Positions 172 through 43,050 of a stretch of DNA of 64,000 nt are shown here, in pieces. Position 1 is the stretch's first letter. Each line of letters starts with the position of its first letter. The position numbers and the translations under genes are program-made. Location: the NCBI GenBank assembly GCA_947479755.1, contig CANKAM010000005.1, positions 52,187-116,186 of the forward strand. The letters are read 5' to 3'. The notes beneath the pieces are model-generated. The model worked only from the letters and a program-made list of their open reading frames with translations. It was not told the DNA's origin and made no database searches. Origin of the DNA: Bacteroidota bacterium (GTDB taxonomy: Bacteria > Bacteroidota > Bacteroidia > SXHM01).

Positions 172-1131
172 CTATTCTTCAACTAATGTTATTTTTATTT
201 TCACCATTGCACCGGTTTGGTTGTGTACGTTCAGGAACTCTTTCATGCCACCTAACTCAGGAACAGTAAACTTTTGTGAAGGTCCTGTGTTTCTGAAAAC
301 GCCTGAACCGGTATAGGTTTGTGTTTTAGAATCGGCAGTGTAAAAATAAGCACCACCGCCTTGCAACACTTCAATTTCAAATTCCTGATCTGCTGCAAAA
401 CCTTCGGTGATGTTATCAACCGAGTTGGCAGGTATTTCGCGCTCAAAAATGGTGGGCACATCATCACTGCCTTTTGCGTTGAGCAATGAGAAATCAATGA
501 AATCGGTAACCCGTGTTATTTCAGCGCGGAACTTATACATCAGAAAACCCAACACACCATAGAACATAACAGCTAACAACACGCGCTGACTTTCAAGATT
601 AGAAGAAGCAGTATCGGCAAGCTGCTCTTTCTGCTGATGCACCAAGCGGATGTTGCGCAGGTCGGTGGCAAAAACATCAACGACAGTTTTCAGCACTAAC
701 AGCGCTGGGTAAGCGGCAAGCCTTATACCCAGTCCTTCAACAGCAGCTACGCGCTGCTCGTAGGTTCCGTTTTGAAAAGGGGCGCGTCCGTTGGGAAGCA
801 GTATCAGGTAATCTTCTGTGTTTTCAAGAAACACTACCTGTATGGCTGCATCCCATTCTTTTATTTTCTGTTTGCTTAGTTCTTTCATCTTGTTTTTAAG
901 GCGCAGCGTTTCGCCTTTGTAAACACCCAATGCTGCTAACCATAAGGCATACAGTTGCGCAAAAAGCGCAAACACAGGGTGAAACAATCCGAACAGCATG
1001 GTGATATCGGCATCGCTCATTTGCTGTGCGCTTAACTTGGCATCGGTATCGGTTGATGCGGTTAACATTCTTTTGCGGTTTCCTTTGGTAGCCGTTTCAA
1101 AGCGGTTTCCCAGATATTGTGAATTTGACAT
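172..1131 (-). CDS. Hypothetical membrane-associated protein with one predicted transmembrane helix; no family recognised.
   Basis: 319-aa ORF with a hydrophobic segment RVLLAVMFYGVLGFLMY. A terminator lies immediately 3'. Confidence 0.45.
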   Translation of the reverse strand: MSNSQYLGNRFETATKGNRKRMLTASTDTDAKLSAQQMSDADITMLFGLFHPVFALFAQLYALWLAALGVYKGETLRLKNKMKELSKQKIKEWDAAIQVVFLENTEDYLILLPNGRAPFQNGTYEQRVAAVEGLGIRLAAYPALLVLKTVVDVFATDLRNIRLVHQQKEQLADTASSNLESQRVLLAVMFYGVLGFLMYKFRAEITRVTDFIDFSLLNAKGSDDVPTIFEREIPANSVDNITEGFAADQEFEIEVLQGGGAYFYTADSKTQTYTGSGVFRNTGPSQKFTVPELGGMKEFLNVHNQTGAMVKIKITLVEE

Positions 1132-1309
1132 TTTTATGGGGCGTTTTAATTGGTTTGGAGTTGCCCTTTGATATGATAACGGTTACATAATTTACTTTAT
1201 TGTATGCGAAAAGTATATTTCTATCAAAAACTATTATAACATACTGATTAACAGCAAGAATAAATTTTTATTATTGCACACCAATTTAGCCTCAGGAACT
1301 AAAAATAAG

Positions 1310-1680
1310 GCAGTATGCAAGTGCATACAACACTAATAGCCGAAAATAAGGCTGTAAACAAGTGCATACACAGGTAGTAGCCGCAAATAAAGCTGTTTGC
1401 AAGTGCAACTTGTAATAATGGCGGCAAATAGTGCTGTTTGTAAGTGCAGATACTGTTATTTGCTGCAAATACTGTTGTTTGCAACTGCAATTTGTTATAA
1501 TAGCGGGAAATATTACTGTTTGCAACTGCAAACCGTAAAAAAAATGGCTATTAGCATGAAAAGTAGTTGCAGATAGCTCTATAAATCAGCACTACACCTG
1601 TTTGCAAGTGCAAATGATAGTATTTGCAAATAATATAACTGTTTGCACTTGCAAACTGCCATATTACTGCGCAATAAAGG
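1310..1680. repeat. About 9 copies of a 41-bp tandem repeat with near-palindromic core CTGTTTGCAAGTGCA (TTGCA-N3-TGCAA)
   Basis: Core motif recurs at 1311, 1351, 1392, 1433, 1474, 1515, a degenerate copy near 1560, then 1599 and 1640. Spacing is 41 bp, with one 84-bp step across the degenerate copy near 1560. The inter-core segments are partly conserved (..TAATAGCCG.AAATA..). The last copy carries the reverse-complement core TTTGCACTTGCAAA. Confidence 0.8.
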
Positions 1681-1725
1681 TGTTTGGATTTATTTTGCTT
1701 AACTTGCGTGGAAAATTTGGAAACC

Positions 1726-4308
1726 ATGAGAAATTATTATCTATTACTATTTGTATTCTTTCTGTCTATTTCAGAAAGCTATTCATTAGGGCATACTGTT
1801 TCAATAAGCGCTACTACCACAACGTGCCCGGGGCAATGTTATGGCAGTGCAACAGCAGTTGTAAGTGGTGGTGGTGGACCTTTCTCATTTCGATGGACCT
1901 ACCCTAACGGATATGTTGGTTATAATGATGAATATGTGCTGGGACTATGCGCTGGAACATACAGTGTAGTGGCTATTGATAGTCTTGACATGTCAGAATC
2001 AGACGCGTTTTTTTTTACCATAACAGAAAGCCTACCTATTACTGCCACTTTTAACAATACGAATACATCAGGATGCGGGCAATGTGATGGTATACTTAGC
2101 GCAATGGCAAGCGGAGGAACGCCACCCTACCAATATATTTGGTATACCTCCAATTATAATTCTGTGCCTTCGCCTTCTAATGTCTGCGCAGGAGCCTATC
2201 GTTTAATTGTTAATGACAATAACTATTGTCAGTTGAATAATGCAATTACATCATTGAGTGATAATGGGGGAATTACCTCATCAGATATTTCCATAGTTGA
2301 ACCAACCATGTGTAACAGCTGTAACGGGACACTTACTGTTAATGGTTTTACAGGTGGAGCCCAACCAATCAGTTATATCTGGACAGGTAATCAGACTAGT
2401 CAAACAATAAATGCCTGTACCGAATCAACCTACTTTATTAATGCCACCGATGCCAACGGTTGTCTTTATTCTGAAACCACTTATATAGGCACACTACCAT
2501 CACCTCATATAGTTTTGGACACACTTATAAATTTAGATTGCAACGGTAATTCATATGGCACAATCAGCGTGCATGCCGAAGGTACAACAGGAAATTATCA
2601 ATACTGGTGGCAGCCAACAGATGATAGCACTTCAACTATTACCAATGTTCAGTCGGGAGTTTATGAAGTATTCGCGTGGGATGAAAACTACTGTGTAGAC
2701 TCAATGGAAATACAAGTCATAAACAGTTATAATATTTATGCAGCAGTAATAACTATTGATGCCAATTGCGGAGATAATGGAACTGCAACAGTTACAGCAC
2801 AAGGTGTAAACCCACCGTTTACCTATTTATGGAACGATGATTTACAGCAAACCGGAGAAACAGCAACAAATTTGTCTGAAGGCAATTACAATGTGCTTGT
2901 AACAGATGCACAAGGATGTTCTGTAATGGGCTACGCTTACATTCCATCGGGTTGCGTAAATATCATTCAAGGAAGAGTTTATCATGATGCTAATCAAAAC
3001 TGCATTCAAGATATTGGTGAAAATGGTTTTGCAGGCAGAATAGTAATAGCAAACCCAAGTGGCGATTTCGGATATACAGATGCAAATGGCGATTATTCTA
3101 TTGAAACACTCAATATGTATAATACAGTACAAGTATCAGATTTTTCATTTCCTTACTATACTATTACTTGCCCGTCAAACGGCTATCTTACTGTAACCTT
3201 TGCTCAATCAGGTGATACTTCTTCGAACAACAATTTCGGGAATTACGCAAGCAATACATCTTTTGATTTAGGGGTTGGAGCATGGTGGACAGGCAGTAGT
3301 CCGGGCTTTCCAATCAGCTATGAAATACAACCTTATAATAACAGCTATTCACCTGAGAACGCATTGGTGCGGTTTATTTACGATAGCGTGCTGCAATATA
3401 CAGGATCTACAATGGGAGGAGTGCATTTTCCAAATGAACATAAAATAGAATGGACGCTTAGTAATATTCCCGGATTTTATGGCAATTGGTATCAACCCTT
3501 AAATGCTACTTTCAACGTTCCTACATGGGTAACAATCAATGATACAATTTCAAACTACTTTGAAATCGAACCTATAACAGGAGATGAGTTTCCTTACGAT
3601 AACACACTCTTTTTACAAGGAACAATTACAGCACCTTTTGACCCGAATGCAAAATCGGTTATTCCAAAAGGCAAATGGGATGAAGGCTATATTTTACCCA
3701 CCGATTCAATATTATTTTACACCGTACACTTTCAAAATACAGGAAACGACACAGCCTTTACGGTTGTGGTAAAAGACACCCTTTCTTCATTTCTTGACCC
3801 TGCTACCATAATGCCGGGAGCAGCAAGCCATCCTTACACATTTGATCTATCAGGACAAGGAATAATGACATTTAGGTTTGACCAAATTATGTTACCTGAC
3901 AGCAATGTAAATGAACCCGCAAGTCATGGTTATTTCAACTATAGAGTAAAAGTTAAAGACAATACACCACTTGGCTCTGTAATCGAAAACACCGCCTATA
4001 TTTATTTTGATTTCAATGCCCCAATTGTTACAAATACAACAGTAAATACAATTGTAAGTTCTCTCTCTATACCTGATGAAGCAACTGTTAACATGCTAAT
4101 CTACCCCAACCCCGCCACCACCGAACTAACCATAGTTGGCTACAACCCTGCCTGCCTTAAACTCTGCAACACCTTAGGACAAACCGTAGCCGAAGCATAC
4201 AACACCAACAAGCTGCAAATAGCTGAACTGCAAAAAGGTTTATACCTTTTGCAGGTGTTTGATAAAAAGGGTGGGCTGGTTAGGGTGGAGAAAGTGTTGA
4301 AGGAATAA
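1726..4308 (+). CDS. Large secreted cell-surface protein with N-terminal SprB-type Cys repeats and a T9SS (Por) C-terminal sorting domain
   Basis: ATG at 1726 (MRNYYLLLFVFFLSISESYS signal peptide). At least five repeats of C..C.G......GG..P..Y.W (e.g. CPGQCYGSATAVVSGGGGPFSFRW, CGQCDGILSAMASGGTPPYQYIW). C-terminus is LIYPNPATTELTIVG...LYLLQV..., typical of a T9SS CTD. Confidence 0.8.
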   Translation: MRNYYLLLFVFFLSISESYSLGHTVSISATTTTCPGQCYGSATAVVSGGGGPFSFRWTYPNGYVGYNDEYVLGLCAGTYSVVAIDSLDMSESDAFFFTITESLPITATFNNTNTSGCGQCDGILSAMASGGTPPYQYIWYTSNYNSVPSPSNVCAGAYRLIVNDNNYCQLNNAITSLSDNGGITSSDISIVEPTMCNSCNGTLTVNGFTGGAQPISYIWTGNQTSQTINACTESTYFINATDANGCLYSETTYIGTLPSPHIVLDTLINLDCNGNSYGTISVHAEGTTGNYQYWWQPTDDSTSTITNVQSGVYEVFAWDENYCVDSMEIQVINSYNIYAAVITIDANCGDNGTATVTAQGVNPPFTYLWNDDLQQTGETATNLSEGNYNVLVTDAQGCSVMGYAYIPSGCVNIIQGRVYHDANQNCIQDIGENGFAGRIVIANPSGDFGYTDANGDYSIETLNMYNTVQVSDFSFPYYTITCPSNGYLTVTFAQSGDTSSNNNFGNYASNTSFDLGVGAWWTGSSPGFPISYEIQPYNNSYSPENALVRFIYDSVLQYTGSTMGGVHFPNEHKIEWTLSNIPGFYGNWYQPLNATFNVPTWVTINDTISNYFEIEPITGDEFPYDNTLFLQGTITAPFDPNAKSVIPKGKWDEGYILPTDSILFYTVHFQNTGNDTAFTVVVKDTLSSFLDPATIMPGAASHPYTFDLSGQGIMTFRFDQIMLPDSNVNEPASHGYFNYRVKVKDNTPLGSVIENTAYIYFDFNAPIVTNTTVNTIVSSLSIPDEATVNMLIYPNPATTELTIVGYNPACLKLCNTLGQTVAEAYNTNKLQIAELQKGLYLLQVFDKKGGLVRVEKVLKE

Positions 4309-6477
4309 CTACTCTGCAATATACCCTGCCTCGCGCCAGATGTAGTTGCCGGTCTTTAAATTAAAGTAGGCCATCTTTCGGTTTTTCTTCAGCAATACCA
4401 CATCGCCTTCCATCATGCTACCTGCTTCATCAATTTCGCAGGGAATAACGTACGCATTGCTTTTATTGATAAAGCCCAGTTTGCCGGCTTCGCTTACTTT
4501 GGCAATGCCGTTAGTAAAATCTCCTGCTTCTTCAAATACGCTGGGTGTTTGCGTTAATCCTTTCGTGTCGATGTAACCGAATTTATCGCTGCGTTTTACA
4601 CGCGCCAGTCCTTCCGAAAAATTACCGGCAACCTCAAACTCAAACTTTATGATGGTCTTTTGCGTGGAGTCAATGTATCCCCATTTACCTTTCTTCTTTG
4701 CTGCAAGCAAGCCTTCCGAAAACCTGCCGATGTCGTCAAACTGTGGTGGAATTAGTTCCTTGCCTGTTATGTCAATCACCCCCATTTTACCTTTCAGTGT
4801 TACGGGAGCTTTGCCGTTTTTAAATGCCAGTTCAGGCAATGCCTGATCAAAAGCAAAATCATACATCACGGGAATAACAACCTGTCCGTTTTTATCAACA
4901 TATCCGTATTTTTCGGCTTTAACTACTACAGCTAGTCCTTCGCTGAACGAGCCTATCTCATCGTATTCGCACTGCACAATGGGCTCACCAACTTTTGAAA
5001 TCAGTCCGTAAAAACCATCCTTTTCTACCCGCGCCAATCCGTCTTTAAACGATTCTGCATCATCAAAATCGTAAGGAATAACAATGTTACCTGACTTATC
5101 AATGAATCCCTTTTTATTATTGAACTCAACCACTGCCCTGCTCTCCGAAAAATCTTCGGCATCATCAAACAGCAAAGGAATAGCAAGCGTTCCTGATTTA
5201 TTTACAAAACCATATTTATCGTTAAGCACTACGCGCGCCAGCCCTTCCGAAAAGTCAAAAACTTCATCGTATTTCAGCGGCACTACCACCTTGCCGGTGT
5301 AATCCACCATGCCATAAAACTCTTCGTTACCCACCACGGCAAAACCATCATGAAAGGGCTCCACTTCCGAATACTGCAGAGCAACAACCGCTTCACCTTT
5401 CTTGTTGATGAAGCCTGCCTTATCGGCCTTGCCCACTTCAGCAATACCTTCGTTAAAAGGTTCACACCAATCGTATTCAAAAGCAATGATCACCTTTCCA
5501 TTGCCGTTTACATAACCCCATTTCTTGTCGCGCACCGCAGGGTAGTAGCGGCTTTTAGCAATCTCCAGATCTTTCAGCACTTCATTTTTATAAGGATAAT
5601 CAGGATACTCTAATCTGAAGTCAGCAAATGATTCAGGATTTGAATCAGCAGTATAAATAGAATAGATTTTGCGCCATGCCTCGGGCACATTATGATTGTC
5701 GGGATACTTCTTTATAAAATCATGGTACTCTTTTATTTTTCCTTTAACAACCGACAATTCGTAAATCTTATTCTCCGCTTCTTTGCGGTAAGTGGTCTTG
5801 GGATACTGTTTCAGAAAATCCAGGTACGACTGGATATTCTTGGGATTGGTAAGTGTTTCGTACAAAGTGGTCTCATACTTTTCCGTTGCAATTACTAAAT
5901 CCTCTGCGGCAGGATATTTATCCATATAAGCCTTGAAAGCCTGATAGGTTCCCTCCTTCTCCGCATTGAGATACGCAAGATGATTGCGAAGTTTAACAAC
6001 CTCATTTAACTGAGGTGCTTCTTTAAAACCTGCAAGAAACCATTCACAACGCTCAACGGTGTTTAAATTGTTTACATCTTCAAATGCGAGAAGAAAAACA
6101 GCCTGCTTCTGCGTTTCAATAGAATTGGAAGTGATGTCAAGCTCAATAAGTTTCTTCTTATCCTTTTCCTCCAGCAAAGCAAAAGCCTGGTCAGATTTCA
6201 CGATTGCTGCCAAAGCAGAATCAAGATTATGAAAAGGGTTTTTATCATTCGCAAAAATCAAACTCAGTCCGTAATAAGCTCCTGCAGGTTCTTTCTTGGT
6301 TGACTTTTCAAATAACTCTTTTGCGGTGAAATAATCGAAACGCTTTAAGGCTTCAAAGGCTTTGTCGAGGGGGCCGCGAAGCCTCATCCCCTGCCCTTCT
6401 CCGAAGGATAAGGGAGCAGAGTACAACACAACTGCAATTAGAATAATAAATACTGATATTTTTTTCACGGCTTTCAA
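4309..6477 (-). CDS. WG-repeat (KWG/WG_beta_rep) protein with signal peptide and an N-terminal TPR-like helical region
   Basis: More than 12 tandem repeats of roughly 37 aa of the form KWGY(V/I)(N/D)..G..VIP..YD....F.EGLA.V. Signal peptide MKAVKKISVFIILIAVVLYSA. Stop codon abuts the convergent SprB-like gene. Confidence 0.8.
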   Translation of the reverse strand: MKAVKKISVFIILIAVVLYSAPLSFGEGQGMRLRGPLDKAFEALKRFDYFTAKELFEKSTKKEPAGAYYGLSLIFANDKNPFHNLDSALAAIVKSDQAFALLEEKDKKKLIELDITSNSIETQKQAVFLLAFEDVNNLNTVERCEWFLAGFKEAPQLNEVVKLRNHLAYLNAEKEGTYQAFKAYMDKYPAAEDLVIATEKYETTLYETLTNPKNIQSYLDFLKQYPKTTYRKEAENKIYELSVVKGKIKEYHDFIKKYPDNHNVPEAWRKIYSIYTADSNPESFADFRLEYPDYPYKNEVLKDLEIAKSRYYPAVRDKKWGYVNGNGKVIIAFEYDWCEPFNEGIAEVGKADKAGFINKKGEAVVALQYSEVEPFHDGFAVVGNEEFYGMVDYTGKVVVPLKYDEVFDFSEGLARVVLNDKYGFVNKSGTLAIPLLFDDAEDFSESRAVVEFNNKKGFIDKSGNIVIPYDFDDAESFKDGLARVEKDGFYGLISKVGEPIVQCEYDEIGSFSEGLAVVVKAEKYGYVDKNGQVVIPVMYDFAFDQALPELAFKNGKAPVTLKGKMGVIDITGKELIPPQFDDIGRFSEGLLAAKKKGKWGYIDSTQKTIIKFEFEVAGNFSEGLARVKRSDKFGYIDTKGLTQTPSVFEEAGDFTNGIAKVSEAGKLGFINKSNAYVIPCEIDEAGSMMEGDVVLLKKNRKMAYFNLKTGNYIWREAGYIAE

Positions 6478-33215: not shown

Positions 33216-36200
33216 TTAAGGAGTTTTATATTTTTTAACTTCCATTTCAAGCAAAGACTCGGTAATAGCTATGTCTGTATTTTTAAAGCAGAAGATACCA
33301 CCCCAGTTCCATGTCTTTTTGTCGTAAACTGTAACCGTTCCCTTGTCGTTAATGATATATCTTTTCAGCTTAAAATCTTTACCATCAATATTCTCTTCAG
33401 TAAGACCCTCCGGGTAAATCAAAGCGATATCAGAAAGAAATTGTACTCTTCTGTCTTTTTCACTAAGTTGATTATTTTTAGCCCTTTCCTGTGCTTCTTC
33501 AAAACGTTTCTTCCTCTCACTTTCACTTAAACGCTTGGCGTCTTCCTGCGCTATTTTGTATTGCTCAGCACGTAATTTTTCTTCTTCCAGACGTTTTACT
33601 TCAGCAGCAGCTTTTGCTTTTGCTTCAGCTTCATCACGCACACGTTTTTCTTCTGCTAAACGTACAGCCTCTTCACGTGCTTTCTTTTCAGCTTCTGCTC
33701 TTGCTTTAGCATCTGTTTCATCTTTTATGCGCTTTGCTTCGGCTAAGCGAGCAGCTTCTTCACGTGCTTTTTGCTCTGCCTCGGCTTTAGATTTTGCAAC
33801 AGCCGCTTCCTGTACACGTTTTTCTTCTTCTTTTCGCGCAAACTCTGCTTCTGCCTTAGCCTCTGCTTCTGCCTGCAAGCGCTTAGCTTCTGCCACTCGA
33901 GCAGCTTCTTCAGCAGCTTTTTTGTCAGCTTCGGCTTTTGCTTTTGAATCAGCTTCTTCTTTCAAACGCTTAGCTTCTGCCACTCGAGCAGCTTCTTCAG
34001 CAGCTTTTTTGTCAGCTTCTGCTTTAGCTTTGGCATCAGCCTCTTCCTTCAATCGTTTTGCTTCGGCTAAACGAGCTGCTTCCTCATCCTTACGTTTCTG
34101 CTCTGCTTCTGCTTTTGCTTTAGCATCTGCAATTTCGCTTATGCGCTTTTCCTCTGCCAGTCGTGCAAGTTCATCAGCTTTTGCTTTGACTGCAGCTTCC
34201 TCTGCCAATCGTTTTTCTTCTGCTGCTTTTTGTTTTGCTTCTTCAGCAATTTTCTTGATATCTGCTGCTAAACGGGCTTCTTCCCCTGCTTTAGCTTTTG
34301 CCGCTTCCTCTTTCTGACGTTTTTCTTCTGTTAAGCGGACAACTTCATCAGCTTTAGCTTTAGCTGCGGCTTCATCAGCTAATCGTTTTTCTTCTGCTGC
34401 TTTTTGTTTTGCTTCTTCACCGGCTTTCTTGGTCTCTGCTGCAAGACGTGCTTCTTCCTCTGCTTTAGCTTTTGCAGCTTCCTCTTTCTGACGTTTTTCT
34501 TCTGTTAAGCGAGTTGCTTCATCAGCTTTAGCTTTTGCTGCGGCTTCATCTGCCAATCGTTTTTCTTCTGCTGCTTTTTGTTTTGCTTCTTCACCGGCCT
34601 TCTTGGTCTCTGCTGCAAGACGTGCTTCTTCCTCTGCTTTAGCTTTTGTAGTTTCCTCTTTTTGGCGTTTTTCTTCTGCTAAACCGTTAGCTTCTTCTTT
34701 AGCCTTTCTCTCTTCCTCAATCTTAGCTTCAGCTTTTGCTTTTGCATCAGCTTCTTCTTTTATGCGGTTTTTCTCAGCCAATTTTGCTTCTTCTTCTTTT
34801 CTTTTTTCTTCGGCTTCAGCCTTTGCTTTTGCATCAGCTACTTCTTTCAAACGCTTTTCTTCTGCAGCCTTAGCTAATTCTTCTTTTACACGCTTCTCCT
34901 GTTCTGCTTTTGCTTGAGCTTCTTCTTTTTGCTTTCCGGCATCTGCAAATAGTACTTGCGCAGCATCTGATTTTGAGGCAAGAATTTCTTTTGATTTTTG
35001 CTCAATTTCTACCCTGCGCTTCTCCTGCTCAGCAACTTCAGTTGCTTTCTTCTGTTCAAATGATTTTTGCAGTTGTTGAACTTCAACTAAATCTGCAGCC
35101 GATTGAAGTGATCTGAAATCAATACCTATAGCAGGCTGACCACTTTCTTCCGCTTTTTTTACATCTCGTTCATATTGCTCATACATGGCAACCGCTTTTT
35201 CTTCACGATAAGGAGCATTAGCTGGTAACGCATTTTTTAATGCGTTGATTGTTGTCTCTCGATTTCCAGCACCTGTAGTAATTGCGTCCTGAATTTTCTT
35301 TCCCTGTTCAGACTTTGTCTGTTGCAGTTTTTCTTCACGAACTTTTTCAACTCCAACTTCTGCTTTTTTAGATTCAGCCTGACGCTCTTTGCGTTTCTCT
35401 TCCATGGCCATGTAAAGCGCAACTTCGCTATTTTTCATAGCATCTTCTTTCTTTTTGTGCTCAGCATCAACCGCTGTTAATTCTGCTTGTTTACCTGCAT
35501 TGAAAATTGATTTGTAATCAACTGCAGCATAATTTTTACCTTGCTCCTGCATGATTTTTCTATCTGCTTCGTATTTCTCATACATTGCAGTAGCTTTATG
35601 TTCAGCAAAAGGATCATCTTTACCGAATGTTTGTTTAAAGGCTTCTATCATTTTCACTTTATCTCCTGCAGCAGATTTAACAGCTTCTTCAATTTTAGCA
35701 ACAGCTGCAGCTTCTTCTTTCGCGCTTTTCTCATTTACCTTTTGCATGTACTCATCTACTCTTGCTTTCTGCTCCTGAGATTGTTTTTGCTCTGCTTCAT
35801 CCTGAGCTTTAATTTCTGCAAAATTAGCAGCAGCAAACAATGCAGAATAATCTACATTTGAAAAGGTTGATCCTGATAGTTTTTGTTTTTCATAAGCCTC
35901 ATATAGCGCAGTAGCTTTTGCTTCTTTATAAGGGTCTTCTTTCGCGTAAATAGTTTCAAGTTGCTTAATTGTTTCTTCTTTATTGCCTGCACCTGTTTTA
36001 ATAGCCTGCTCAATTTTTTGTTTTTGCTCGGTTTCTGCTTTTTCGCGCAGTACTTGTTGTACACGTTCTGCCTCCTCTAGTTTTCCTTTCATCTCAACAG
36101 CAGCAGCTTCTTTTTGCTTTTCAAGTGCCTGTTTCTCAGTTTTTGCTATTTCTTCTTTTGCAATACGTATTTGTTCCTGAACTTTTTTAACTTCTTCTTC

Positions 36201-37040
36201 TTTTGCTTTTACTATTTGTTGTTCAGTCTTTTTTCCTTCCTGAAATAATATGCCATAATCAACTGTTCCGTTTGTTCCCTTTTGTTTTTCATACGCCTGA
36301 TATATTGCTTCTGCCTTTTTTTGGGCAAGAGTATCGGTATCTAGAAATGTTTTCTTTAAAGCATTTATTGTTGTTTGTTTGTCTCCATTTCCTGATTTTA
36401 TTGCATCTTCAACTTTTTCTTGTCCTAATGTTTTTTCATCTGCTATAAGAGTTTTTGCCTGCATTTCGAGCAACGCCTTGTCTTCTGCAGCCTTTCTCTG
36501 AAACTCTAATTTTTCAAGCCTTTCGCGCTCTAACTTTGCTTCCTCTTCCAGTTCTTCTTTTGAGTAATCTAACTGATAGTCAAATTCTTTTTTCCTCGCG
36601 TAATAGAAAACATTTGCAACAGGGTTAATATAACCGAGACCATCACGGTCAGGTACAAGGTCAACTATAAAACCAAAAGGTTCAGGCTGATTTGTAAGTG
36701 CATATACCTCTGTATCAAAGGTTACTTTTTTTGTGGTATAGCCTCCTACAGCAACTTCAATCATATACTTTCCTTCAAGGTCTAATTTGAAAGAAAATTT
36801 TCCATCACCTTTTGTTAATTGTTTTTCAATTTCAACCCATTTGCCGGTTTTATCAATATCCTGATAAAGAATAACAATAACGTTCTTTAGTTTATCCTGA
36901 AGTTCCTGCGCAGAGCCATTTATAACTAGTTTCCCGGGAATACTGCCGGCAGGCGGCTTCTCCTGCTCAAGCAAAACCTGTGCAGAAACAGAAAGCGATA
37001 ATTGAGAAAGAAGGAATAAAGAAAGTAGTATTTTTTTCAT
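33216..37040 (-). CDS. Giant secreted protein (1274 aa): an N-terminal carboxypeptidase-regulatory-like beta-sandwich, then four roughly 60-aa helical modules, then a Lys/Ala/Glu-rich coiled coil of more than 800 aa (TolA domain II-like) and a small C-terminal domain
   Basis: Signal peptide MKKILLSLFLLSQLSLSVSAQ. Beta-sandwich motif GKYMIEVAVGGYTTKKVTF. Long runs of EEKRLKEEADAKAKAEA. Contains internal in-frame DNA tandem repeats. Confidence 0.7.
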   Translation of the reverse strand: MKKILLSLFLLSQLSLSVSAQVLLEQEKPPAGSIPGKLVINGSAQELQDKLKNVIVILYQDIDKTGKWVEIEKQLTKGDGKFSFKLDLEGKYMIEVAVGGYTTKKVTFDTEVYALTNQPEPFGFIVDLVPDRDGLGYINPVANVFYYARKKEFDYQLDYSKEELEEEAKLERERLEKLEFQRKAAEDKALLEMQAKTLIADEKTLGQEKVEDAIKSGNGDKQTTINALKKTFLDTDTLAQKKAEAIYQAYEKQKGTNGTVDYGILFQEGKKTEQQIVKAKEEEVKKVQEQIRIAKEEIAKTEKQALEKQKEAAAVEMKGKLEEAERVQQVLREKAETEQKQKIEQAIKTGAGNKEETIKQLETIYAKEDPYKEAKATALYEAYEKQKLSGSTFSNVDYSALFAAANFAEIKAQDEAEQKQSQEQKARVDEYMQKVNEKSAKEEAAAVAKIEEAVKSAAGDKVKMIEAFKQTFGKDDPFAEHKATAMYEKYEADRKIMQEQGKNYAAVDYKSIFNAGKQAELTAVDAEHKKKEDAMKNSEVALYMAMEEKRKERQAESKKAEVGVEKVREEKLQQTKSEQGKKIQDAITTGAGNRETTINALKNALPANAPYREEKAVAMYEQYERDVKKAEESGQPAIGIDFRSLQSAADLVEVQQLQKSFEQKKATEVAEQEKRRVEIEQKSKEILASKSDAAQVLFADAGKQKEEAQAKAEQEKRVKEELAKAAEEKRLKEVADAKAKAEAEEKRKEEEAKLAEKNRIKEEADAKAKAEAKIEEERKAKEEANGLAEEKRQKEETTKAKAEEEARLAAETKKAGEEAKQKAAEEKRLADEAAAKAKADEATRLTEEKRQKEEAAKAKAEEEARLAAETKKAGEEAKQKAAEEKRLADEAAAKAKADEVVRLTEEKRQKEEAAKAKAGEEARLAADIKKIAEEAKQKAAEEKRLAEEAAVKAKADELARLAEEKRISEIADAKAKAEAEQKRKDEEAARLAEAKRLKEEADAKAKAEADKKAAEEAARVAEAKRLKEEADSKAKAEADKKAAEEAARVAEAKRLQAEAEAKAEAEFARKEEEKRVQEAAVAKSKAEAEQKAREEAARLAEAKRIKDETDAKARAEAEKKAREEAVRLAEEKRVRDEAEAKAKAAAEVKRLEEEKLRAEQYKIAQEDAKRLSESERKKRFEEAQERAKNNQLSEKDRRVQFLSDIALIYPEGLTEENIDGKDFKLKRYIINDKGTVTVYDKKTWNWGGIFCFKNTDIAITESLLEMEVKKYKTP
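33883..34056. repeat. Two near-identical in-frame 87-bp tandem repeats (29-aa unit AEAKRLKEEADAKAKAEADKKAAEEAARV) inside CDS 33216..37040
   Basis: TAGCTTCTGCCACTCGAGCAGCTTCTTCAGCAGCTTTTTTGTCAGCTTC occurs at 33883 and again at 33970. Confidence 0.7.
34310..34830. repeat. Three in-frame tandem copies of a 174-bp (58-aa) unit inside CDS 33216..37040; the first two are near-identical
   Basis: CTTTCTGACGTTTTTCTTCTGTTAAGCG... restarts at 34310 and 34484, with a diverged third copy near 34656. The protein unit is AEEKRLADEAAAKAKADEATRLTEEKRQKEEAAKAKAEEEARLAAETKKAGEEAKQKA. Confidence 0.8.
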
Positions 37041-37107
37041 CTCAACTCTTAAATTTTTTAAACAACTAATTTACGAACTTTCAGATTACTATAGTTGTCC
37101 CCGAAAA

Positions 37108-39345
37108 TTATTTCCCTGCTGTGGTAATAATTTTTTTACCGTCAACACTTAAAATAGTAAGTTCAATTCTTCTGTTCATCTGGCGACCTTCCAGATCATC
37201 ATCACCATTAGGTTTTAGATTATCAGCAATAGGCTTAGCTTCCCCATAACCTTTGGTAACAACTCTTTTGGCTTTTATACCTCGTTCATCCAACCATTTT
37301 TGAACGGATTTTGCCCTTCTTCTTGATAAATCAATATTGTATTCGTCAGTTCCTCTGGAGTCAGTATGACCTGCAACCTCAACAATCATTTCAGGATTTG
37401 AGGTCATAAAGTAATATAGTTTTGAAAGTTCAATAACTGACTCATCACGTATATTATCTTTGTCAAAATCGAAATAAATTCTTTCCAAAATAATTTTATC
37501 GCCCGGTTTAAATTTTTTGGTATTTGAAATATCTACGTCCATTAGTGATGGATCATAGCCAAGTTTTTTAATCACTTCAAGTTTTGCAAGTTCCTTTTCA
37601 AGTTCTACAATTTCATCTGCAAGTGTGAGATTCTGTTGTTCAACTTTAGGTATCTCCATAGTATATGTTTGATCCATTCTATATTTTGCATTTGGATCCG
37701 GACGCATGGTGTAATCTTGTATAATCTCTGAAATGAAAGAACTTTGACCTAACACTTCTACAACACCCATAGTATCAAAGTAAAGTGGGTTTTGAATATA
37801 AACACAATACTCGCCCGGCTGAAGTATTTGAACATAATTACTATTCCGGGAATTTGGTTTGTAGTAACCTATCAGTTCATTGGTTTCCATATTTGTAACT
37901 GACATTATAAATTCAGGCAGTTTCATGTCGGGATTTTTCTTCAACGAGTCTGCTATGTTTGTTATTGATCCTCTGACTAAACTCCTCTCCGGATCTACTT
38001 CGTTAAATGTTACTTTATAAATATCCTTTTCTCCAAATCCTTCCGGTCTGAATTGAGCAACATATCCATACCTTCCTGTAGTTGACATTGAAATATTATA
38101 ATCTTCATCTACCGTATTTATTGGGTAACCAAGATTTCTAGGTGTTGACCAGGTTTGGGTAAGTTCGTCCCAAACGGAAGTAAAAATATCAAAACCTCCC
38201 ATACTTACATGGCCTTCTGAAGCAAAATAGAGTGTTTTCCCATCTGCTGCGAGGTGCGGGAACGTTTCGTTGTATTTGGTATTAATAATCGGACCAAGGC
38301 TTACAGGATTTCCCCAGTTACCATTTGGCATTCGATACGACATAAAAATATCAGTGCCTCCATTAGTCGTCTTATCTTCACGTGAGAAGAATAGTTTACT
38401 AGCATCTGTAGATAGTCCTGCAGATGTTTCAATACCCTCTGAATTAATATTTGTTCCGAAAGTTTTATATTCTTCATAATACCTGCCTTTTCTTTGTGAG
38501 ACATAAACATCATCGTATCCGTCAAAGTTGTCAATAAAAACAAGCATTTCTTCACCATCAGCAGAAACTCCAACTACTTCCTCATACCACTCAGTATTTA
38601 CTGCTGAACCTATATTTCTTGCTTCTCCAAATTTCCCTCTTCGTTCATTTGCCCTGTAAATATCTGATGTTTTATATCCGTCATAGTCAATTTGTATACC
38701 TAAGCAATCTGGTCTTTTTGAAGTAAAAACAATGAATTCTTCATTTTCCGGAATAAACGGGTTATACTCAGGATAAGGTGTGTTGATGCGGCTACCAAGA
38801 TTTTCAAAAGTAACATCTAACGGATATTTAACAAGTTCCTTAGCATTAAAACACATTTCAATAACGCGGTCTCCGGCAATAATATTATCATTTGCGGAGC
38901 GCAGAATGTCCTTATATTTATTCAAAGTAATAATAGCCTCATCAAAACGGCCTACAAACTGATATGCACGTCCTAATTGATAAAGTGCTTCTTTATCAAA
39001 TTTTGGTTGCTGTGTAACAAATTCCAAATAGCTGATGGCTTTAGACTTATCAATATATGTTTCAAGATAGCAACAACCCACGTAAAAATTATAATCTACA
39101 TTCTGAGGATCATTTGCAAGAAGTAATAAGAATTCATCCAAAGCTGCTCTGAAATTTCCATTCCAATAATGTTCTAATCCCTTCTGTTTAGTTGGCTTAT
39201 ATATTTTATCTTCTTTTTCTTTTTTAATTTTATCCTCAACTTCCTGAGTAGTAGTAATGTCTCTTGACTGCGAAAACACAGCAAGAGGCAATGCTAATAG
39301 CGTAAAAACAAAAAATAAGAATGAAAAAGTATAGGTCTTTAACAT
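37108..39345 (-). CDS. PorE-like envelope protein: signal peptide - TPR - PD40 beta-propeller - carboxypeptidase-regulatory-like domain - short coiled coil - OmpA_C peptidoglycan-binding domain
   Basis: Four-domain order matches P. gingivalis PorE (PG1058). The OmpA_C motif is ...VEVAGHTDSRGTDEYNIDLSRRRAKSV..NRRIEL. Confidence 0.75.
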   Translation of the reverse strand: MLKTYTFSFLFFVFTLLALPLAVFSQSRDITTTQEVEDKIKKEKEDKIYKPTKQKGLEHYWNGNFRAALDEFLLLLANDPQNVDYNFYVGCCYLETYIDKSKAISYLEFVTQQPKFDKEALYQLGRAYQFVGRFDEAIITLNKYKDILRSANDNIIAGDRVIEMCFNAKELVKYPLDVTFENLGSRINTPYPEYNPFIPENEEFIVFTSKRPDCLGIQIDYDGYKTSDIYRANERRGKFGEARNIGSAVNTEWYEEVVGVSADGEEMLVFIDNFDGYDDVYVSQRKGRYYEEYKTFGTNINSEGIETSAGLSTDASKLFFSREDKTTNGGTDIFMSYRMPNGNWGNPVSLGPIINTKYNETFPHLAADGKTLYFASEGHVSMGGFDIFTSVWDELTQTWSTPRNLGYPINTVDEDYNISMSTTGRYGYVAQFRPEGFGEKDIYKVTFNEVDPERSLVRGSITNIADSLKKNPDMKLPEFIMSVTNMETNELIGYYKPNSRNSNYVQILQPGEYCVYIQNPLYFDTMGVVEVLGQSSFISEIIQDYTMRPDPNAKYRMDQTYTMEIPKVEQQNLTLADEIVELEKELAKLEVIKKLGYDPSLMDVDISNTKKFKPGDKIILERIYFDFDKDNIRDESVIELSKLYYFMTSNPEMIVEVAGHTDSRGTDEYNIDLSRRRAKSVQKWLDERGIKAKRVVTKGYGEAKPIADNLKPNGDDDLEGRQMNRRIELTILSVDGKKIITTAGK

Positions 39346-39456
39346 CTAGTTATTTCACATATTTATCAGCCTGTGAAGCCTTTTTAATTTCGGGTTAATA
39401 ATACCAAATATTTTAAAACACGCAAAAAATTTAAATCTTCGTTATTAACAATTTTA

Positions 39457-42400
39457 TTAAGATTTAGGTTTTAAATCCTTTGGAACATCAAAATTTTCAA
39501 TCTTAACATTCTTTGCATCAAGGTTCAAAATCCTGATTTCAATTCTTCTGTTTAACTGTCTTCCTTCAGGATTATCTGATCCATCAGGATTCTCATTTAT
39601 AGCAATTGGTTGACCTTCTCCCATTCCAACAGCTTTAAAGCGATTAGCATCAATACCTTTTCTTGTAAGATACCTTACCACTGCATTTGCTCTGTCTTTT
39701 GAAAGCTCTACATTATAATCATCATTCCCATGAGAATCGGTATGACCACTAACTTCAACTTTTATGTCCTTATTATCTGACATATAGTTATATAATTTCT
39801 GTAGTTCTTCCTCCGACTCTTTCCTGATTATTGATAAATTATAATCAAATAAAATATTTTTAAGTACAACAGACCCACCCTTTTTAAATGATTCGAAATC
39901 AGTTTTCATAACTGCTGCCTGATATTTTTGCTGCTTCTGAATTTCTTCAAATTTAGCTAACAACTCTTCGTACTTTTTATTTTGGTCCGTAACCTGCTGT
40001 GTCAACTGATTAATTTTATTACCCGATTCAGCTATTTGCTTTTTAAGTTGTTCGTTTTCTAAAATCAGTGCTTGATTCATTTTCTTCAGTTCCTCAATAC
40101 TCTTTGAATTGTCAAGTGCATCTGCTTGATTTTTTGCTTCCTCCTCAGCTTTAGCTTTGGCGACTACCTCTTCTGCTTTCCGTTTTTCCTCAGCAATCTT
40201 CTGTTGCGCTTTAACAAATTCTTCTTGTTTCTCTTTTTTAGCGGTTTCTTCTAATTTAAGTTTCTCGTCAGCAAGTTTCTCGTCAGCAATCCTTTGCTCT
40301 TCCGCTTTCCTTTTCACTTCTTCTTCTTTTTGAGCAGCAAGACGAATTTCTTCCATTTTAGCTTTATTAGCTGCCTCAAGAGACGCTTTATCTTCAGCAT
40401 CTTTTCTCTCAGTTTCCTCCTTAGCCTGTAACTTCCTTTTTTCTTCAACTATCTGTTGGTCTTCTTGTTTCTTCTTCTCTTCATAAGACTCCTTAGCGAA
40501 ACCTGATGCCAGTTCTTCTTTCTCTTTAGTTATTTTTTGAGTTTGTAATTTCTTAAGTTCCTCTAAGCGCTTGACAATTTCATTTTTTCTAGCAACTAAT
40601 GAATCTTCAAATGCTTTTTTCGTTTGGTCGGCAATTAGCTTTTGCTGCTCTTCCTGTTTTTTCTTTTCTGCTGCAAACTTTGCTGCTTCATCAGCCTTAC
40701 GTTTCTCTTCTGCTAAACGTGCGGCTTCCTCGGCAAGTTTCTTTTCCTGTGCTGCTTTATTAGCTGCAAGTTCTTCCGCTTTTTTCTTTTCCTCAGCTGC
40801 TATACGAAGTGATTCCTCAGCTTTGGCTTTTGCTGCAACTTCTTCTGCAAGCTTTTTCTCTTCAACTGATTTTGCTGCGGCAACTTCTTCTGCCTTTTTC
40901 TTTTCTTCTACTGCCAAACGGGCTGTTTCTTCTGCTTTAGCCTTTGCTGCTAATTCCTCAGACAGTTTTTTCTCATCAGCAGATTTAGCTTTAGCAAGTC
41001 CTTCTTCCTTTTTCTTTTCTTCTGCTGCTAAACGGGCTATTTCCTCAACTTTGGTTTTTGCTGCGGCTTCCTCAGCCAATTTCTTCTCTTCTGCTGATTT
41101 AGTTGATGCAAGTTCTTCTGCTTTTTTCTTCTCAGCTGCAAGGCGTTTTTCTTCTTCCGCTTTCTGCTTCTCTTCTGCCAGCCTACCTCTCAGAACAGCT
41201 TCTTCAGAAAGTCGTTTTTCTTCAGCCGCTTTTGCTGCTTGTTCTGTTTTGCGTTTCTCTTCTGCTAATAAAGTTTCCTGCTCTTTAGCAGATTTCTCCA
41301 TCGCAACAAGTTGCTCTTCCAATGCCTTCAGCTCTGATAGTTTTTCGTTTTCAGGTTCTTTATTATCTGCTATCTGATTCACTTCTTCAACTTTCTTTTC
41401 TTCTTGTTGCGCAACTTGTTTTCCGCAAATTACAGGATCAAGCATTATTGCTTTTGTTATCTCTGCATAGCTTGAATTTTCAGGAACTACTATTTTATCG
41501 ATTTTAGACTGATAACCATCACACTCATAGGTAACATTATACGTTGCTCCAGGTTGAAGAATAAAAATATAGCTTCCGGTAGATTTATTAGGTTTATAAA
41601 TTCCTGTAACAGCATTGGTTCTGGCATCAGCTACAATAATATTTGCAAGAATTTCCGGACTATTTTCAAGAATAACAACACCTTTCATAACGGTAAGGCT
41701 TTCTTTCTTTTTTTCGGTAAGCTCAATCAGATAAATATCTTTTTCACCCATCCCACCTTCCATGCGTGAAGAGTAATAAGCATAGTGTCCATCCGGAGTA
41801 GTAACAAAAAACACATCGTCTTCAGGAGAATTGATCGGATAACCAATATTAACAGGTGTTGACCAAACTCCATCGATATTTTCAGAAGTGAATATATCAA
41901 AACCGCCCATACTATTGTGACCCTGAGAACTGAAGATAAGTGTTTTCCCATCAGCTGCAAAAAATGGTGCTTCTTCATCAAAGGCGGTATTTATAGTTGC
42001 TCCGAGATTTTCCGCTTTACCCCAAGTGCCATCAGGAAGAAGTGAGATTTTGTAAATATCTCTTCCGCCTAAACTTCCGCTTCTGTTACTGACTATGAAT
42101 AAATTTTGTCCGTCTGCCGAAACTGTTGCATGGGTTTCCCAAGAACCGGTGTTTATTTCACCGCCTAACTTTTCAGGTTTTGACCATTCTGCACCATTTA
42201 ATTTACTCATGTAGATATTACCATCTCCATTGTCATCTTTGTAAATAAACAATTGCTGTCCGTCAGGAGAAAGGCCTATTGTGGCTTCATGTCCTTCCGT
42301 ATTAATATTAACCCCTATACTTCGTGGTGTTGTCCATTTACCTTTTTCTTTTTTTGCAATGTATATGTCCTCATAGTACTTTCCGTCAAGAAAAAGTTTC

Positions 42401-43050
42401 CCGCCAGTCCCTTCTCTGCGTGAAGTAAAGATGAGTGTATTGCCATCTCCTGAAATTACAGGGCTATATTCTTCATATTTTGAATTGATAACCGAACCCA
42501 ATGATTGAACCTTAATATTTACAGGTTCTTCTATAAGTAATTTTGCATTTTCAGAATATTCAATCTGATGTTTTACTTCAGAATACGTATTTACATCTTC
42601 TAAATCAACAAATGACCGATAATTATAATAATTTGAAATTGCATCATCAAAACGGTAAGAAAAATGGTAGGCTTTTGCAAGATTATAATATGTTATACCT
42701 GGTGCTGTTTTTTCCTTGTAGTCGCTTTCTTTATACATAGGCGATGGGGGTGAAAGCATTATTGCCTGCTCAAGATAATAGATTGCTTTTTTTCTGTCAG
42801 GGCTAGCACCAAGATAGGATGTACCCAACATGTATGCAATATTTGCGTTTGAAGAATCGTAAGCATATAATTCCTTTGAAATAGGCAGGGCTTTGTAATA
42901 GTCACCGTCAAACAAATAACCATCAACCAAAGCGAATTTCTTTTTAAAATCCGCTTCGTTGGTAACTTGTGCGCTTACTGTGCTGAAAAGAAATAAACCT
43001 AAAACTACTAAAAGTAAACCTGCTCGCATAAACTGTCCGTAAAAATACAA
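39457..43050 (-). CDS. PorE-like protein with a roughly 450-aa Lys/Ala/Glu coiled-coil insertion: TPR - PD40 - carboxypeptidase-regulatory-like domain - long coiled coil - OmpA_C
   Basis: PD40 blades and beta-sandwich motif SYIFILQPGATYNVTYECDGY. About 40-aa repeats AEEKKKAEE.AAAKS.EEKKLAEEAAAKAKAEE. C-terminal OmpA_C motif VEVSGHTDSHGNDDYNVELSKDRANAV..NRRIEIRIL. The true start may be the internal Met MRAGLLL. Confidence 0.75.
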   Translation of the reverse strand: MYFYGQFMRAGLLLVVLGLFLFSTVSAQVTNEADFKKKFALVDGYLFDGDYYKALPISKELYAYDSSNANIAYMLGTSYLGASPDRKKAIYYLEQAIMLSPPSPMYKESDYKEKTAPGITYYNLAKAYHFSYRFDDAISNYYNYRSFVDLEDVNTYSEVKHQIEYSENAKLLIEEPVNIKVQSLGSVINSKYEEYSPVISGDGNTLIFTSRREGTGGKLFLDGKYYEDIYIAKKEKGKWTTPRSIGVNINTEGHEATIGLSPDGQQLFIYKDDNGDGNIYMSKLNGAEWSKPEKLGGEINTGSWETHATVSADGQNLFIVSNRSGSLGGRDIYKISLLPDGTWGKAENLGATINTAFDEEAPFFAADGKTLIFSSQGHNSMGGFDIFTSENIDGVWSTPVNIGYPINSPEDDVFFVTTPDGHYAYYSSRMEGGMGEKDIYLIELTEKKKESLTVMKGVVILENSPEILANIIVADARTNAVTGIYKPNKSTGSYIFILQPGATYNVTYECDGYQSKIDKIVVPENSSYAEITKAIMLDPVICGKQVAQQEEKKVEEVNQIADNKEPENEKLSELKALEEQLVAMEKSAKEQETLLAEEKRKTEQAAKAAEEKRLSEEAVLRGRLAEEKQKAEEEKRLAAEKKKAEELASTKSAEEKKLAEEAAAKTKVEEIARLAAEEKKKEEGLAKAKSADEKKLSEELAAKAKAEETARLAVEEKKKAEEVAAAKSVEEKKLAEEVAAKAKAEESLRIAAEEKKKAEELAANKAAQEKKLAEEAARLAEEKRKADEAAKFAAEKKKQEEQQKLIADQTKKAFEDSLVARKNEIVKRLEELKKLQTQKITKEKEELASGFAKESYEEKKKQEDQQIVEEKRKLQAKEETERKDAEDKASLEAANKAKMEEIRLAAQKEEEVKRKAEEQRIADEKLADEKLKLEETAKKEKQEEFVKAQQKIAEEKRKAEEVVAKAKAEEEAKNQADALDNSKSIEELKKMNQALILENEQLKKQIAESGNKINQLTQQVTDQNKKYEELLAKFEEIQKQQKYQAAVMKTDFESFKKGGSVVLKNILFDYNLSIIRKESEEELQKLYNYMSDNKDIKVEVSGHTDSHGNDDYNVELSKDRANAVVRYLTRKGIDANRFKAVGMGEGQPIAINENPDGSDNPEGRQLNRRIEIRILNLDAKNVKIENFDVPKDLKPKS

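Follow-up and report, generated by a model that had tools for sequence, protein, structure and literature searches.

The subject of this analysis is a tandem array of 41-bp repeats near the start of a 64,000-nucleotide stretch of DNA (hereafter the window; contig CANKAM010000005.1 of a Bacteroidota bacterium), together with the gene that accompanies it. The array sits in a 594-bp divergent intergenic region, flanked on one side by a gene for a 319-amino acid protein of an uncharacterised family and on the other by a gene for an adhesin that is a cargo protein of the type IX secretion system (T9SS). An earlier note on this DNA, made from the sequence alone, had described the repeat and assigned it to the adhesin gene as a cooperative array of binding sites. 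Across approximately 21 lineages, however, the array follows the family of the divergently oriented 319-amino acid gene. Gene and array together appear to constitute a conserved and previously undescribed module, in which the period of the repeat, 40-42 bp, has been kept and its sequence has not. Literature searches for gene families accompanied by a 41-bp repeat returned no description of this pairing.

A tandem array with palindromic cores

Positions 1306-1680 of the window comprise nine 41-bp registers, eight of which are recognisable copies and one of which is degenerate. The earlier description, about nine copies of a 41-bp tandem repeat with a palindromic core, was confirmed by repeat search, Tandem Repeats Finder (TRF), shuffles and autocorrelation. 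The repeat search returned eight in-register copies over 1306-1694, with start-to-start spacings of 41, 41, 41, 41, 41, 82 and 41 bp, the 82-bp step hiding the ninth, degenerate copy at ~1547-1587; TRF reported a period of 41 across 1302-1532. When up to three mismatches are allowed, the core CTGTTTGCAAGTGCA has 12 matches in the 64-kb window, 10 of them within the array, against 3.6 +/- 1.9 in shuffled sequence, no shuffle attaining 12. Autocorrelation at lag 41 reaches 0.64 identity (z ~5) at the array locus only within the 64 kb. Every clear unit carries a 16-bp inverted repeat, GTTTGCA-NN-TGCAAAC, composed of 7-bp arms around a free 2-bp centre (7+2+7). One core, that at 1641-1656 (TTGCACTTGCAA), matches TTGCAAGTGCAA exactly when reverse-complemented, and the linkers between cores are partially conserved, both as previously described. 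The individual cores are listed in Table 1.

The array is non-coding and is not a clustered regularly interspaced short palindromic repeat (CRISPR) locus, as the earlier note had also held. No open reading frame (ORF) in the ORF list spans it, and an Rfam scan of positions 1000-2000 at E <= 10 gave sub-threshold miRNA/snoRNA noise only, with no match at the gathering score. CRISPR arrays consist of identical 23-50-bp repeats between which lie unrelated spacers of ~26-72 bp, a poor description of an array whose whole unit measures only 41 bp and whose 'spacers' are 60-80% homologous to one another; no cas genes flank it, and the sole PADLOC match is an insignificant Cas6 (E = 0.024) in one homologue. 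WW dinucleotides (W being A or T) are phased at 10.25 bp across 1306-1680, with a normalised power of 22 that is the maximum of the spectrum, a pattern that predicts intrinsically curved or wrap-prone DNA.

Table 1. Features around the repeat array, in window coordinates
Feature	Positions	Strand	Remarks
319-aa gene, uncharacterised family	172..1131	-	start codon 175 bp from array
Spacer, array to family gene	1132..1305	-	holds promoter-like block at 1176-1202
Tandem array, nine 41-bp registers	1306..1680	.	repeat search, TRF, core count, autocorrelation
Core 1	1313..1328	.	GTATGCAAGTGCATAC; perfect palindrome with symmetric T/A to A/T change
Core 2	1354..1369	.	GTAAACAAGTGCATAC; left arm decayed
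Core 3	1395..1410	.	GTTTGCAAGTGCAACT
Core 4	1436..1451	.	GTTTGTAAGTGCAGAT; weak
Core 5	1477..1492	.	GTTTGCAACTGCAATT
Core 6	1518..1533	.	GTTTGCAACTGCAAAC; perfect palindrome
Degenerate seventh register	1547..1587	.	core lost (degenerate core ~1559-1574); unit 36/41 identical to orthologue in relative L135
Core 8	1600..1615	.	GTTTGCAAGTGCAAAT
Core 9	1631..1666	.	GTTTGCACTTGCAAAC; core proper 1641-1656, inside ~36-bp extended palindrome with 17-nt arms
Segment from last unit to adhesin ATG	1681..1725	+	45 bp; conserved among close relatives
T9SS cargo (adhesin) gene	1726..4308	+	860 aa: SprB repeats, DUF7619, Por_Secre_tail

The array accompanies a gene family across lineages

Loci for comparison were collected solely by similarity to the 319-amino acid protein, by three routes: close relatives, distant relatives found in a metagenome scan with the family alignment, and further homologues. 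All are metagenomic contigs, in which the copy number of a tandem array may be mis-assembled and its period is not, and lineages rather than contigs were counted, giving approximately 21 from a family with more than 1000 clusters. A lattice lies upstream of the family gene in approximately 20 of these 21 lineages, down to ~25% protein identity, as judged by a top autocorrelation lag of 40, 41 or 42, or of 81-84. The carriers are Bacteroidota and a Verrucomicrobiales-like clade, and the lattices have 5-25 units with a period of ~40 bp in two lineages, 41 bp in approximately 12 and 42 bp in seven. In most lineages the gene lies downstream of the lattice at a distance of ~100-450 bp. Among 5802 control windows from unrelated loci, none showed lag 41.

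Period-41/42 arrays were found by TRF just upstream of most homologues, with unit sequences wholly different between loci. The period is 42 in L140 (7.7 copies) and 41 in L141 (8.8 copies, at 529-888), L143 (6.4), L144 (7.1), L145 (7.9), L147 (6.0), L148 (7.4) and L150 (2.2, the contig end cutting the array). A scan of autocorrelation lags recovered the period where TRF had failed (L146, L151, L142 and L139) and in the added loci L152-L156, while the lattice of L157 is weak (z ~3), yet visible by eye. In one lineage (P0019; L162-L169) the lattice extends over ~1 kb, at about 500-1450 in L164, with higher-order repeats of 82, 123 and 205 bp (2, 3 and 5 x 41) as its building blocks. The ORF between this lattice and the gene encodes 132 amino acids and belongs to no family.

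The neighbouring genes vary by lineage and include those for DUF7619 adhesins (window clade and L145), a PKD protein, TonB-dependent receptor-like proteins, a sigma-54 activator and a glycine dehydrogenase. An adhesin stands beside the module in some lineages only, and a T9SS cargo gene adjoins the array itself in the window clade only. Since the array follows the 319-amino acid gene family whatever the far-side neighbour, it travels with the family gene and not with the adhesin. The earlier assignment to the adhesin is thus not sustained. With its last unit only 46 bp from the ATG of the adhesin gene, the array could still plausibly affect that gene's promoter in the window lineage.

One further locus was found by DNA pattern alone. 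A Bacteroidales metagenome-assembled genome (L095) holds two identical 42-bp arrays, at 1330-1731 and 4819-5273, separated by 3.5 kb. A lipoprotein-like 320-amino acid ORF outside the family follows the first, and a distant member of the family follows the second. The genome-wide scan for paired cores otherwise returned mostly chance matches and 6-bp coding repeats, besides two arrays in Longitalea arenae. The latter (L023, 1-170, and L106, 224-403) have 42-bp units with a TTGCAATTGCAA core. Each occupies the beginning of its scaffold or comes close to it, with no family gene visible on the sequenced side; the two probably break the assembly. In short contigs with family genes (L158-L161 and many from the P0171-P0195 clusters), the sequence often breaks off at the array edge, 100-300 bp before the gene, which suggests population heterogeneity or assembly failure.

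The period is kept and the sequence is free

The consensus units of different loci share no motif in either orientation: the mean best circular match was 17.2 of 41 positions in the same orientation and 17.3 reversed. An impression that a polar motif, GCAGTTT, recurs among the arrays was not upheld by this orientation test. Within an array, the homogeneity of units ranges from 98% (L143) to ~50% (L152 and L153). Pieces of the unit are related within sub-clades: L145 and L147, for instance, have TTCACGGAG in common, and ACAGC recurs in the window clade. Co-evolution of protein clade and core motif is mixed: L143, L145 and L147 share unit pieces, and a core, CCGTGGC-N-GCCACGG, is common to the arrays of L141 (529-888), L156 (~2510-2730) and L157 (~1970-2200), whose proteins are only ~35% identical. 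One of the latter three loci is Verrucomicrobiales-like and GC-rich, and the other two are AT-rich. In L131-L134, with proteins of 85-89% identity, the units have diverged to a CTGACAAAnCCACAG type, partly in alternating orientation, and their spacing is still ~40.5 bp.

Copy number, compared between strains, is constant in one group and variable in others. The intergenic region is 100% identical in nine metagenome contigs that encode an identical 319-amino acid protein, with no copy-number variation among these nine contigs of the window strain group. The arrays of L143, L144 and L148, by contrast, have 8, 7 and 9 units on identical flanks, and strains of the P0019 lineage with an identical protein differ in the copy number (2.3 to 3.3) and type of their higher-order repeats. 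Array edges are more diverged than array centres.

The cores are under purifying selection

A relative of the window locus (L135) encodes a protein of 92% identity, and the four-fold sites of the two genes, which are 73.3% identical, provide a baseline against which the non-coding sequence can be read. Identity between the window and L135 is 83.2% over the whole array (p = 5e-6), 90.3% (130/144) in the 16-bp cores (p = 4e-7), 78.7% in the linkers (p = 0.04) and 85% in the proximal spacer (p = 0.001). The substitutions in the cores are concentrated in the central NN, and the A and T beside the core centre are invariant. This comparison shows the cores of the array to be under purifying selection.

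The adhesin-proximal unit has its own symmetry, its orthologue in L135 (4470-4503) being a perfect 34-bp palindrome. The window unit (1631-1666) and this orthologue differ by one pair that is altered in both arms (T-A to C-G) and, on the strand of the family gene, by the change of two G-T pairs to G-C.

An unannotated family of helical proteins

The protein family comprises 1259 representatives at 50% identity (E <= 1e-3), with members of 240-320 amino acids. Among close relatives of the window protein, the taxonomic labels are Bacteroidia and Chitinophagales; a close relative of the 240-amino acid short form is labelled Verrucomicrobiales by NCBI. The 319-amino acid protein matches no Pfam, NCBIfam, PADLOC or PHROG family, the PDB holds no sequence relative of the family, and neither a viral relative nor a PHROG match was found for the module. 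AlphaFold models of the long form (predicted local distance difference test, pLDDT, 89) and short form (pLDDT 91) contain two helices of ~60 residues in an elongated bundle, and in the long form only this N-terminal helix bundle is followed by a C-terminal beta-sandwich. Sixteen residues are invariant in the family alignment, many of them polar, including a PNGRxPF loop. A membrane protein was considered and rejected, the hydrophobic helices of the window protein not being conserved in the family, as was a HEPN protein, whose Rx4-6H motif is present in the window protein but whose His is not conserved in the alignment.

Flanking sequences and neighbouring genes

Between the array and the start codon of the family gene, ~35-85 nt upstream of the gene, lies a block of the form CAATAA-N12-13-CCGTTAT-N2-TAT. 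It is kept from the window clade to L143, L151, L153 and L154 at a like distance from the ATG, in loci whose proteins are ~30% identical, and the consensus RNA fold of the conserved spacer contains no pairs. Being conserved and without a consensus fold, the block looks like the family gene's own promoter. It is not a Bacteroidetes TAnnTTTG promoter, a -7 motif that is missing from almost all of the upstream regions examined. A sigma-70 scan found promoter-like sites at chance level (3 against 3.3 expected), and terminator-like matches in the same scan numbered four (0.7 expected), three of them core hairpins with weak tails. Inspection of the units by eye gave no fit to sigma-54 spacing.

On the other side, the ATG of the adhesin gene lies 46 bp past the last array unit, and the intervening segment (1681-1725) is so short that the promoter of this gene must reach into the final unit or units. 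In L135, a nucleotidyltransferase gene and a gene for a nucleotidyltransferase substrate-binding protein (PF01909 and PF08780; 567-1350), a toxin-antitoxin-like pair, are inserted beside the adhesin gene, and the pair is absent from that place in the window. Elsewhere in the window, the minus strand of 33216-43050 holds three very large ORFs of 1274, 745 and 1197 amino acids; the first and third contain in-frame tandem repeats of 87, 174 and 114 bp and have extreme AT skew. They probably encode repeat-rich coiled-coil proteins.

Comparison with known repeat-array systems

The closest likeness in anatomy is to sopC of the F plasmid, in which units of 43-45 bp, in 3-17 copies, each carry a 16-bp 7+2+7 inverted repeat bound by the dimeric SopB, a member of the ParB family (PMC3177203). 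The two share direct tandem repeats of approximately four helical turns (43-45 bp there, 40-42 bp here) and a 16-bp 7+2+7 inverted repeat in each unit, which the 41-bp units of the window array also possess. They further share a copy number of 3-17 or more, terminal units that are the most variant, and a position adjoining the gene of the partner protein (PMC3177203). The present arrays differ in being chromosomal, with no ParA or ParB genes among their neighbours and no helix-turn-helix (HTH) detected in the adjacent protein, and in that the family has no common unit sequence and many arrays are without a clear palindrome.

Within the Bacteroidota, BrickBuilt of Porphyromonas gingivalis is a dispersed minisatellite of 23-nt units, of the MITE (miniature inverted-repeat transposable element) type, that occurs 19 times per genome (PMC4596501). 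It too consists of intergenic, spacer-free tandem repeats of variable copy number near promoters (PMC4596501), but its unit is 23 nt, it has leader and tail inverted-repeat ends and it is not bound to one gene family.

Phased direct repeats upstream of a partner gene are also a feature of plasmid iterons with Rep and of ParR/parC-type centromeres, systems that bind cooperatively and autoregulate. Their periods are 11-22 bp and their proteins are of the winged-helix or ribbon-helix-helix type. The window array, in contrast, has a period of 41 bp and comes with no replicon functions, Rep domain or plasmid match. An iteron replicon, with direct repeats of 17-22 bp, a rep gene and an AT-rich origin, was rejected on these grounds, and the iteron type of regulator suggested in the earlier note is not supported.

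A same-face binding-site array as the tentative interpretation

The interpretation we favour, at rather less than even confidence, is an array of DNA binding sites set on one face of the helix at intervals of four helical turns and working in cis with the family gene. The window array would then be this lineage's version of a two-part module, composed of a 40-42-bp lattice of 5-25 units and a gene for a helical protein of 240-320 amino acids. In this model every unit would present the same site on a common helical face, where a protein dimer, which may be the family protein, would bind cooperatively. The resulting nucleoprotein structure would form just upstream of the promoter-like block of the family gene and set the expression of that gene. 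With no more than 46 bp between the array and the adhesin ATG, the same complex would, in the window clade, also sit on the adhesin promoter. We infer action at the level of DNA rather than RNA in part because the invariant A and T flanking the core centre are expected of half-sites and not of the loop bases of a hairpin. Of the dimeric binding-site array proposed earlier, the symmetric cores, the four-turn spacing, the selection on the cores and the WW phasing all fit. The analogy drawn in the earlier note to H-NS/Lrp-type regulated or phase-variable surface proteins gained no support. It is possible, at a level we would again place short of even, that we are dealing with an undescribed two-component module of Bacteroidota and Verrucomicrobiota, in which an unannotated helical protein (at least 1259 clusters) and its own upstream array physically interact, the geometry of the complex setting the length of a unit whose sequence changes fast.

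Several observations weigh against this interpretation. No DNA-binding fold or HTH was detected in the family protein, whose fold matches are generic helical bundles and a jelly-roll, and no regulator was identified for the array. Within the window clade, proteins that are 70-90% identical stand beside quite different cores, which sits uneasily with a direct reading of the core by the family protein. Some arrays have no palindrome. The fourth-harmonic A/T phasing is not general: the 10.25-bp signal is found also in L145 and L147 and not in most arrays, so that it holds for the window array and was rejected as a universal constraint. The sole array seen in L137 is downstream of the gene, at the contig end, and the lattice of the P0019 lineage lies ~1 kb upstream of its gene with a small ORF between. 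Finally, in L147 a co-directional gene ends 11 bp before the array and a terminator comes after the array, which is thus probably transcribed. A strong hairpin was also observed in L154 (~2380-2430; ATCCCCTCTTCTTTTT...AAAAAGAAGAGGGGAT), beyond the distal end of the array and with a T-rich tail on the strand opposite the family gene; it hints at transcription of that array away from the family gene.

Transcription of the array is the premise of an explanation that we consider unlikely, in which the repeated RNA units bind the family protein, either in the manner of type III toxin-antitoxin systems (ToxI/ToxN) or as a protein sponge, with the geometry of the complex fixing the 41-nt length and the sequence co-evolving or running an arms race. 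Antitoxin repeats of type III systems have characteristic length ranges in each family and occur in 1.9-5.6 copies (PMC3401426). As in ToxIN, CptIN and TenpIN, a tandem array here lies directly upstream of a single, self-contained protein gene with variable neighbours, the repeat has a characteristic, tightly held length and a variable sequence, and at some loci a terminator separates array and gene (PMC3401426). Many units can form hairpins: fold z-scores are -6 to -10 for the arrays of the window, L141, L145 and L147, palindromic units folding far better than shuffles on both strands, and are ~0, with no stable fold, for L140, L143 and L137. L141 and unit 1 of the window contain variants that allow G-U pairing on the sense (gene) strand, but the variants of L145 favour the strand opposite to the gene. 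Only L150, L147 and L141 have a convincing array-to-gene terminator. Of the 17 loci scanned, two more gave a score on that strand, the window through the core hairpin of its last unit and L134 through a weak hairpin, and the other 12 gave nothing. Neither strand composition bias in the arrays nor pairing covariation in the cores above that of shuffles (window against L135; 146/500) was seen. The copy number of 5-25 exceeds the type III range, and the units, often diverged, are just 50-70% alike in many lineages. The protein, a helical bundle of 240-320 amino acids with or without a beta-sandwich, does not resemble the ToxN-type endoribonucleases of ~150-200 amino acids, with no ToxN, AbiQ or CptN fold detected and no PADLOC match. 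The conserved promoter-like block between array and gene likewise speaks against an RNA partner.

The remaining explanations do without a dedicated partner for the family gene's array or assign it elsewhere. A minisatellite whose sequence serves no specific function, descended from an ancestral 41-bp repeat in front of the family gene and kept in period by the unequal crossing-over that homogenises its units, would account for the strain variation in copy number, the higher-order repeats in exact multiples of 41, the diverged edges, the complete turnover of sequence between lineages and the frequent ending of short contigs at arrays. We nevertheless hold it to be quite unlikely: an unselected array should be deleted or drift in period and is instead kept at 40-42 bp in approximately 20 of 21 lineages, the window cores are more conserved than four-fold sites, and L141, L156 and L157 share CCGTGGC-N-GCCACGG despite ~35% protein identity. 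It is decidedly improbable that the array serves above all the SprB/DUF7619 adhesin gene, binding a regulator that gives on/off or graded control of it. The overlap with the adhesin promoter and the DUF7619/Por_Secre_tail genes that flank the module in the window clade and L145 would suit such a role, but arrays remain where no adhesin is adjacent (L153, L154, L155, L143, L147 and the P0019 lineage), the adhesin of L145 is downstream of the family gene and not beside the array, and the nine contigs of the strain group show no variation in copy number. To a cluster of a dispersed element, whether a repetitive extragenic palindrome (REP), a bacterial interspersed mosaic element (BIME) or a MITE, or to an integrated replicon's centromere or set of iterons, we give very little credence. 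The units are palindromic, those of L134 alternate in orientation as in BIMEs, the same 42-bp array occurs at two loci in L095, the Longitalea arenae arrays stand at the starts of two scaffolds, and the anatomy is sopC-like. Set against this, no further copies of the core or unit were seen in the rest of the 64-kb window or ~6 kb beyond (~70 kb covered), so that neither REP/BIME elements nor the MITE-like filler named earlier as a refutation is in evidence there, and the lineage-specific cores are absent from the flanks of other loci. None of the adjacent genes encodes ParA, ParB, Rep, a transposase or RAYT, and there is neither a plasmid match nor a viral relative.

Significance

For annotation, the correction is immediate: the window array is not to be read as an adhesin-specific switch. 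The lattice of 40-42 bp also offers a simple search key for members of the family and their promoters. The element would be unusual in that its period is conserved and its sequence is not, which would point to either a structural code in DNA, by phasing on the same face, or an RNA partner constrained in length, and either outcome would add a type to the bacterial systems composed of a repeat array and a protein, such as CRISPR, type III toxin-antitoxins, iterons and centromeres. Should the physical pairing of array and protein prove true, its logic would be analogous to that of sopC/SopB or ToxI/ToxN and built from unrelated parts. If the link holds, a large unannotated protein family would gain its first functional handle, in the form of a cis element that always travels with it.

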